Of a stretch of 64,000 nt of DNA, positions 13,516-14,411 are shown in pieces. This DNA comes from Eledone cirrhosa. Taxonomy: Eukaryota. The notes beneath the pieces are model-generated. The model was not told where the DNA came from, made no database searches, and saw only the letters and a list, made by a program, of their open reading frames with translations. The stretch is taken from positions 311,612,001-311,676,000 of the forward strand of contig OZ024743.1 in the NCBI GenBank assembly GCA_964016885.1. Reading direction: 5' to 3'. A program made the translations under genes and the position numbers. How positions within the stretch are numbered: position 1 is the first letter of the stretch; every line of letters begins with the position of its first letter.

Positions 13516-14411
13516 TAAGTATGTATACGTACATACATATATGTATACAGACGCACAGTATATGCACATATATACACACATGCACACACACATATATGCA
13601 CGTATGGATTTACCGAACATTTATTATAATGCTCGGTTTGTTTGTAAACAAACATCCCGAATTAAGCCGTACAGTGTTTAGCAACCATCGTTGCTCGTTT
13701 GCTCAACACTGACAAAGGAACGATGTACCAGCCTCAAGCCCCTCAGCCATCGCCAGCACTGTACACCTTCCCGCCAGATGACTGAACGTCTGAAAGTATA
13801 TACTTTCCTTATGCATATCAACGGCTGAGTAGCCTAATTTGCATATCGAGTGAGTTAATCGGCCGGGCGCACCGAAAACGATAAACGGAAAAAATGAAAT
13901 AAAATTTCATTTCTCACTCTTAGTACGGCTGTTACTTAAATATAAGTATGTATACGTACATACATATATGTATACAGACATTTTTTCCGTTTATCGTTTT
14001 CGGTGCGCCCGGCCGATTAACTCGCTCGATATGCAAATTGGGCTGCTCAGCCGTTGGTGTGCATAAGGAAAGTATATGCTTTCAGACGCTCAATCATCTG
14101 GCAGGAAGATATACGGTGCTGACGATAGCTAATAAGCTTGAAACTAGTACATCGTTCCTTTGTCAGTGTTGAACAAACGAGCAACGATGGTTGCTAAACA
14201 CTGTACGGCTTAATTCGGGATGTTTGTTTACAAACACACCGAGAACTATAATAAATGTTCGGTAAATCAATACGTGCATATATGTGTGTGTGCATGTGTG
14301 TATATATGTACATACTACTGTGCGTCTGTATACATATATGTATGTACGTGTACATACTTATATTTAAGTAACAGCCGTACTAAGAGTGAGAAATGAAATT
14401 TCGTTTCATTT
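13516..14411. mobile_element. Non-coding hammerhead-bearing element (family B) as an inverted pair, unit about 427 bp
   Basis: 13516-13979 with terminal direct repeat (taagtatgtatacgtac at 13516 and 13943) followed by an inverted copy 13981-14411; relatives at 25982-26177 and 62910-63290. Confidence 0.85.
14113..14155 (+). ncRNA. Minimal type I hammerhead ribozyme (family B)
   Basis: acggtg-CTGACGA-t agct aata agct t-GAAA-ctag-TA-catcgt; stem III palindrome ACTAGT. Confidence 0.78.

Follow-up and report, generated by a model that had tools for sequence, protein, structure and literature searches.

The window analysed here, a stretch of 64,000 nucleotides from Eledone cirrhosa (contig OZ024743.1, positions 311,612,001 to 311,676,000), carries two arms of one repeat in head-to-head arrangement at 13510-14414. 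BLAST of this region against the window finds 13510-13552 again at 13937-13979, a period of 427, and BLAST against the window together with pairwise alignment sets the repeat unit at 428 nt. The unit is numbered with 13980 as position 1 and counted in the hammerhead reading direction. Arm 1 (13510-13979, minus strand) amounts to 1.1 units, running through unit 345-428 and then 1-387 to a fixed 3' end of the '387' class. It is followed by arm 2 (13980-14414, plus strand), one unit covering unit 1-435, which pairs with arm 1 over 336 nt at 92% identity. The 3' end of arm 1 enters a (TA)n-rich target (13465-13515). Arm 2 stops 8 nt before the usual '443' end with no (TA)n beyond, and its last portion (14367-14414, plus strand, unit 388-435) belongs to the 56-nt extension at 388-443 between both fixed 3' ends, the 'tail'. 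The two window arms together show one indel in 907 nt.

The element lies in an intron of a class C GPCR gene on the minus strand, between an upstream exon at 34040-34868 (ANF_receptor, profile 4-135) and a downstream exon at 10923-11138 (profile 134-206; E 2.8e-5, slightly below the curated cut-off). The profile ranges of these exons abut, and their splice ends are GT/AG and in phase. The apparent stop after the 11 kb exon sits beyond a GT donor and is no evidence for a GPCR pseudogene. An earlier, sequence-only reading of this DNA had described the recurrence of the unit start after about 427 nt, the inverted copy and the GPCR intron, and all three are borne out.

Further relatives had been proposed in the window, and those at 25976-26179 and 62907-63290 do belong to the family. 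The first is short and head-to-head, with unit 299-387 in its minus arm and unit 300-443 in its plus arm; both arms end in (TA)n, and there is no hammerhead. The second, on the plus strand, is a diverged subfamily copy with 78% identity to the family majority; it ends at the '387' point into (TA)n and has an intact hammerhead at 63008-63050. With this second copy as query, a genome search that passes over common words gave no candidates. The remaining stretch, 62580-62870, is no permuted copy; it is a palindrome in its own right, from a related family, near-perfect over 62620-62870, with about 75 nt in common with unit 295-368; similar sequence forms 467-nt repeats at another locus (L003). Other mobile elements also populate the window. 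Positions 46-2793 and 53199-53984 presumably come from non-LTR retrotransposons, with disrupted ORFs for RT and a restriction-like domain at the C-terminus, and 27818-30626 is an LTR-type protease/integrase remnant. A Penelope-like insertion at 35303-37831 has inverted 356-nt ends, each with one hammerhead-like core (at 35409 on the minus strand and at 37725 on the plus strand), and within it 36014-36568, which has no Pfam match, is a stretch that we take to be a GIY-YIG-like fragment. At 38098-39216 lies the 3' portion of a Penelope-like family that is young and very abundant, with ORFs of 784-791 aa elsewhere in the genome, and inspection by eye found no CUGANGA-type core in the 330 nt past its stop. 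Additional CUGANGA...GAAA cores occur at 12850, 40625, 40949, 44519, 57881, 58698 and 58850, in at least three other repeat families, and several of them close stem II with A-U.

Arm 2 contains an intact type I hammerhead (14113-14155, plus strand), its core and stems read by pattern and covariation: ACGGUG CUGACGA U AGCU AAUA AGCU U GAAA C UA G UA / CAUCGU. It comprises a 6-bp stem I, the CUGACGA element, a stem II of 4 bp preceded by a U-U mismatch, and GAAA. Stem III is the palindrome ACUAGU, and the predicted cut falls after GUA, between 14149 and 14150. In arm 1 the hammerhead (13720-13762, minus strand) is altered by A-to-G changes that turn CUGACGA into CUGGCGA and GAAA into GAGG, and the stem III palindrome is also lost through A-to-G. 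Editing is likely to have inactivated the predicted arm-1 ribozyme, and the edited core string occurs once in the genome. The three ribozyme copies counted in the sequence-only reading thus shrink to two intact cores, at 14113-14155 and 63008-63050, since that of arm 1 is altered and the 26 kb copy has none. The arm with the destroyed ribozyme is GPCR-sense and the intact ribozyme is antisense, an arrangement that could be chance (n=1). None of the 11 Rfam matches at E<=10 in 13600-14280 is to a hammerhead model, and for the whole window the 150 of 193 matches listed are microsatellite hits to miRNA models. Over about 310 passes of the family the stems are 89-99% paired and the core is conserved. 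Stem I pair 137-173 is U-G in 161, G-U in 95 and A-U in 34 of 305 passes, and this two-sided exchange suggests selection on the predicted hammerhead fold.

The base of stem II is unusual. Among 311 passes it is U-U in 282, C-A in 17 and a Watson-Crick or wobble pair in 6, the next pair being A-U, and the usual R10.1-Y11.1 closing pair of stem II is absent from the family. The U-U closure had been correctly seen in the window copies, but it is not special to them: the mismatch is a family trait, kept through a two-sided change to C-A in a sister subfamily (L137-L166; up to about 1,500 copies), which also has CUGAUGA and a GUU cleavage triplet. Stem II may also be read as closed by A-U, each side then having one extra base; a version in which A-U would close on the second U was rejected, as the sister subfamily has A there. 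Natural 10.1-11.1 mismatches may have been described by Lunse et al. 2017. A literature survey at the level of titles and abstracts, with subscription papers and bioRxiv supplements outside its scope, found no report of natural closing-pair variants. In minimal Penelope hammerheads the G10.1-C11.1 pair is described as highly conserved, and motifs with a palindromic stem III are described as relying on a dimer and acting weakly in vitro (Cervera and de la Pena, 2014, PMC4209133). The motif studied here resembles those hammerheads, as described there, in its palindromic, unstable stem III and in the unpaired base after A9, and differs in having a 1x1 mismatch in place of G10.1-C11.1 (PMC4209133).

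The family is large, with at least 10,046 exact 31-nt type I hammerhead cores found by a core search of the 3.0-Gb assembly. Consecutive exact cores lie about 420-430 nt apart, and arrays occur at L014, L131, L135 and L136; long satellite-like arrays of the unit were also seen at L131 (G000:C28:110.02 Mb), L156, L171 and L193, some with higher-order periodicity. Where do individual copies begin and end? The sequence-only reading had stated that copies begin at other points and had suggested mapping their ends on the unit. This was done for 151 aligned loci, which are not a random sample: they were collected for their resemblance to the window arms, with forced-variant patterns and manually; 14 overlapping or duplicated loci were dropped, and 215 segments of at least 110 nt and at least 83% identity were retained. 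Their 5' ends do vary, occupying 15 of 15 unit bins, but their 3' ends in the ribozyme sense are fixed: 94 fall at unit 376-392, 95 at 426-21 and 26 elsewhere. The two fixed 3' end classes, 56 nt apart, cover 189 of the 215 segments, and TA follows at 144 of these 189 ends and at 2 of the 26 others. In the window the ends at 13510, 25976 and about 63290 are at unit 387, and that at 26179 is at unit 443. Paired segments are head-to-head in 54 cases and tail-to-tail in 2, and among the 54 head-to-head pairs 39 combine both end classes and 4 have the same class. Segments exceed one unit by more than 60 nt in 103 of 215 cases and reach at least two units in 20 of 215. The inner junction is different at every locus, and solo and tandem copies are common.

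Two fixed ends 56 nt apart, variable 5' ends and mixed pairs constitute a 'tail' signature, and they point to a non-autonomous Penelope-type element. Penelope-like elements are described as forming partial tandems with an inverted 5'-truncated copy at AT-rich targets; a single end bears a tail, which spans the interval from one internal RT start site to the other (PMC8557442, PMC3846280, PMC11167929). Those with pseudo-LTRs (Craig et al., 2021; Arkhipova et al., 2013; Frangieh et al., 2024) likewise have (TA)n targets and a hammerhead in the repeat; compared with the elements as published there, the present one has a 428-nt unit that lacks an ORF and a tail of 56 nt instead of 30-40. Animal non-LTR retrozymes are described as non-coding tandem units with a type I hammerhead (PMC7229834; bioRxiv 10.64898/2026.07.22.740005). 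The family matches their descriptions (Cervera and de la Pena, 2020; Li, Clavereau and Pollet, 2026) in its unit of a few hundred nt and short palindromic stem III, as well as in the occurrence of monomers, dimers and multimers, the thousands of copies and the proposed Penelope-like mobilisation (PMC7229834). Unlike the retrozymes in those accounts, it is made up largely of Penelope-style insertions that are dispersed and have inverted arms and two fixed ends, seen here as genomic copies only, and its stem II closes with U-U or C-A. The insertion is thus very probably a non-autonomous Penelope-type retrozyme, and the retrozyme family itself is of a known kind.

The unit holds no notable ORF. 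An octamer, ATGCAAAT, at 14031-14038 (plus strand, unit 52-59), about 80 nt upstream of the ribozyme, is 97-100% conserved and is a candidate for an snRNA-type promoter element. A promoter of snRNA type is reported for newt satellite 2 (PMC2220036, citing Coats 1994). No coding piece adjoins a 5' end in any of the 15 loci with coding matches. As for an autonomous partner, the Penelope-like family of 38098-39216 shares nothing with the unit; this comparison covered one abundant family, for which there were 89,736 candidates, 110 of them scored and 30 fetched.

Comparison of the window arms with the family majority, each read in the ribozyme sense, reveals bursts of A-to-G change. Arm 1 has rare A>G at 20 of 145 A and T>C at 0 of 158 T; arm 2 has 13 A>G, 12 of them rare (12 of 132 A), and T>C at 2 of 145. 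The family rate of A>G is 141 in 14,100, and other copies show 1.0% A>G and 0.9% T>C. Of about 30 mismatches between the two arms, 23 are A/G. Each burst lies on the ribozyme-sense strand of its own arm, and the two are therefore on opposite chromosome strands. Such bursts recur in the family. In a genome search that forced A148G, 9 of 84 matches had at least three A>G in 31 nt where 0.3 were expected, and a forced T>C control gave 0 of 53 (p 0.010 against A148G), the control offering 8 further T sites against 11 A sites. A double A>G pattern gave 18 matches (10 forward, 8 reverse) at 14 loci, and a double T>C control gave 1. The other rare changes in these 14 loci are A>G 117, T>C 11, G>A 16 and C>T 21. 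A stricter per-locus test found an A>G excess at 5 of 147 loci and a T>C excess at 0 of 147, and it flagged 1 of the 51 loci chosen independently of A>G.

The sequence context of the edited sites resembles that of ADAR. In the 14 loci, 6 of 227 A preceded by G are edited (2.6%), against 111 of 1439 (p 0.002), with 8-9% after T or A, and the effect of the 5' neighbour is flat in unedited loci; in the window alone the 5' neighbour is G at 1 of 25 edited sites (p 0.14). Inverted pairs make up 12 of the 14 edited loci, against 21 of 51 (p 0.005), and the edit rate is 8.8% within the pairable stretch and 5.2% outside it. The unit is predicted to fold strongly (z -9, 40 shuffles), and edited A's are no more often paired in the predicted circle (0.58 against 0.63). 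As a guess, antisense RNA from inverted copies may have served as the ADAR duplex partner. A-to-G hypermutated avian retroviruses offer a precedent. Depletion of 5'-G is described for ADAR hyper-editing, as are heavily edited Penelope RNA in lizard and very high hyper-editing in octopus (Porath et al., PMC5625713). In that account of repeat RNA the changes are in RNA reads, and here they sit in genomic copies (PMC5625713). Clustered, one-way, strand-specific changes in single copies are also described for APOBEC-edited retroelements; there the change is G-to-A and here it is sense A-to-G (PMC4866542, PMC2873906). The literature survey, in its titles and abstracts (subscription papers and bioRxiv supplements outside scope), gave no edited retrocopies fixed in genomes. 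We hold with good confidence that the bursts are real and were made by ADAR.

The edits also act as a barcode on the template. At L197, L199, L202 and L212 most edits are common to both arms, and these shared edits indicate that both arms were copied in sense from one edited molecule or source. At L202 the same edits (unit 388-418) precede the hammerhead in one arm and follow it in the other. L212 (G000:C12:16.087 Mb) goes further: one arm covers unit 242-428 and then 1-431, and nine rare A>G occur in both successive laps, none in a single lap, and also in the mirror arm. Successive laps would be the same nucleotides on a circle, and on a linear multimer they would be different and independently edited, so that L212 favours a circle. 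This edit set was found at no other locus in a core pattern search, and each of its sites is rare among the fetched loci. L013, L053 and L193 have five rare A>G confined to one lap. Tandem laps mostly differ by about 5.5%, which fits linear multimers or age. In the window the two arms have 7 A>G in common and differ at 19 A/G sites, neither set being contained in the other; as the arms carry mostly different edits, they probably derive from two RNA molecules. That some templates were circular is slightly favoured, with support from one clear locus, L212.

The sequence-only reading had derived reverse transcription from a circular or multimeric RNA from the permuted start points of the copies. 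Reverse transcription of a multimeric or circular template stands, but the permuted starts do not show a circle, because fixed 3' ends with random 5' truncation would also yield them from a linear multimeric RNA. An apparent excess of copies truncated at the cut site (1,596 non-A matches at position 170 against 180 at a control) was rejected on inspection of 30 position-170 matches: none has a 5' end at the cut site, all keep upstream hammerhead sequence, and they are mostly of the GUU sister subfamily. The templates would accordingly have been uncut multimers or circles and not cleaved linear monomers, as no copies truncated at the cleavage site were seen. Could every template have been an uncleaved linear multimer, transcribed from a tandem array and bearing the same ADAR scars, with L212 explained as an edited unit duplicated as DNA or as a one-unit template jump? 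The long genomic arrays at L131, L156 and L171, the lap-specific A>G at L013, L053, L193 and L113 and the fact that none of 30 inspected matches starts at the cut site speak for this, as does the anole element, which is described as using unprocessed RNA in vitro, with cleavage not needed (PMC11167929). Against it, the source array that L212 would require is not in view, its edit set is at no other locus searched, and L202 likewise shows permuted sharing. Templates that were always linear are therefore somewhat unlikely, though still a serious possibility. The A-to-G bursts are unlikely to be mistakes of sequencing or assembly that go with long inverted repeats. If long reads were miscalled in a hairpin's second arm, for example, the errors would fall in the ribozyme sense in both arms; inverted pairs are indeed prominent among the edited loci (12 of 14), and the edited core lacks support in independent contigs or reads: depth over 13740-13753 is zero in the short-read contigs from three runs of one sample and in the raw reads of one RAD run from another, although the family itself is deep; the animals sampled may differ from the one assembled, or rare variants may have dropped out of the contigs. 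The best run holds 0.50 of the words, and shared family words alone give about 0.55. Yet most long inverted pairs in the same assembly are clean (65 pairs listed), the per-locus excess is one-sided (T>C 0, A>G 5 of 147 loci), and edit sets vary among loci of identical sequence. The core edits of L207, L211, L213 and L214 fall outside the stretch pairable with the other arm, no inverted partner lies within 1.5 kb of L210, L124 or L125, 5'-G is depleted as described for ADAR (PMC5625713), and the 907 nt of the window arms show a single indel.

The inverted pair had further been credited with forming about 400 bp of dsRNA within the intron. A fold prediction for the intron-sense strand does give 370 long-range pairs, and such a duplex is possible if the intron is transcribed, but it accounts for nothing observed. 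In particular, local editing or mutation of a 400 bp hairpin in the GPCR pre-mRNA is a very improbable origin of the bursts: besides the predicted pairs, the A-to-G changes of arm 1 do lie on the gene strand, but those of arm 2 lie on the opposite strand (13 against 2 T>C), where this origin would have given T-to-C. One transcript cannot yield both, and editing of host-intron RNA leaves DNA unchanged. Least probable of all is a DNA transposon of fold-back or MITE type, or a Helitron, with terminal inverted repeats, the possibility that the sequence-only reading had set against its own and that is now turned down. Long inverted arms with outer ends fixed in TA would suit it. However, a single 3' region of the unit forms both outer ends, the inner junction varies by locus, solo and tandem copies are frequent, and strand-specific edits indicate an RNA stage; there is no fixed internal sequence, and target-site duplications are unreadable within (TA)n.

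The best explanation, to which we assign a probability of about 0.7, is that the window holds a head-to-head, non-coding hammerhead repeat, likely of Penelope type, whose arms were likely edited by ADAR as RNA before reverse transcription. Under this retrotransposition model, tandem copies would be transcribed in the ribozyme sense, and a Penelope-like RT/GIY-YIG protein supplied in trans would cut (TA)n. Each DNA end would prime RT at an internal site of its own, the two sites lying 56 nt apart, and two-site priming would produce mirror-image arms with the tail on one. Roughly 0.2-2% of the RNAs may have been hyper-edited beforehand, their edits becoming fixed as DNA, and at least some templates were probably monomeric circles copied for more than one lap. 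Head-to-head arms have been suggested to involve an antisense template (PMC3846280); unlike in that suggestion, the edits here mark the ribozyme-sense strand as template for both arms. Taken as an ADAR barcode, the edits would more broadly have an animal retrozyme enter germline DNA from a circular monomer, by rolling-circle copying with two-ended, sense-strand priming of Penelope type, with editing after circularisation destroying the ribozyme and being inherited, and the ribozyme working without a stem II closing pair. This combined account is tentative and falls a little short of an even chance.

For animal retrozymes and Penelope-like elements, which RNA strand and form serve as template and how mirror-image insertions arise are matters proposed, not demonstrated in vivo, in the literature as cited here. 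The circle as RT template is put forward as a hypothesis in the Discussion of PMC7229834, and the L212 edit barcode provides genomic evidence that bears on it. A hammerhead family of 10,000 copies that lacks the R-Y closing pair is well suited to a simple cleavage assay. With more than 10,000 near-identical copies, the edit test can be scaled to dozens of loci. From DNA alone, the edited copies identify the ribozyme-sense strand as the template of both arms; both arms usually carry the edits of one molecule, and at L212 these edits are read on two laps. In such copies, edits made in RNA would have been turned into heritable mutations.
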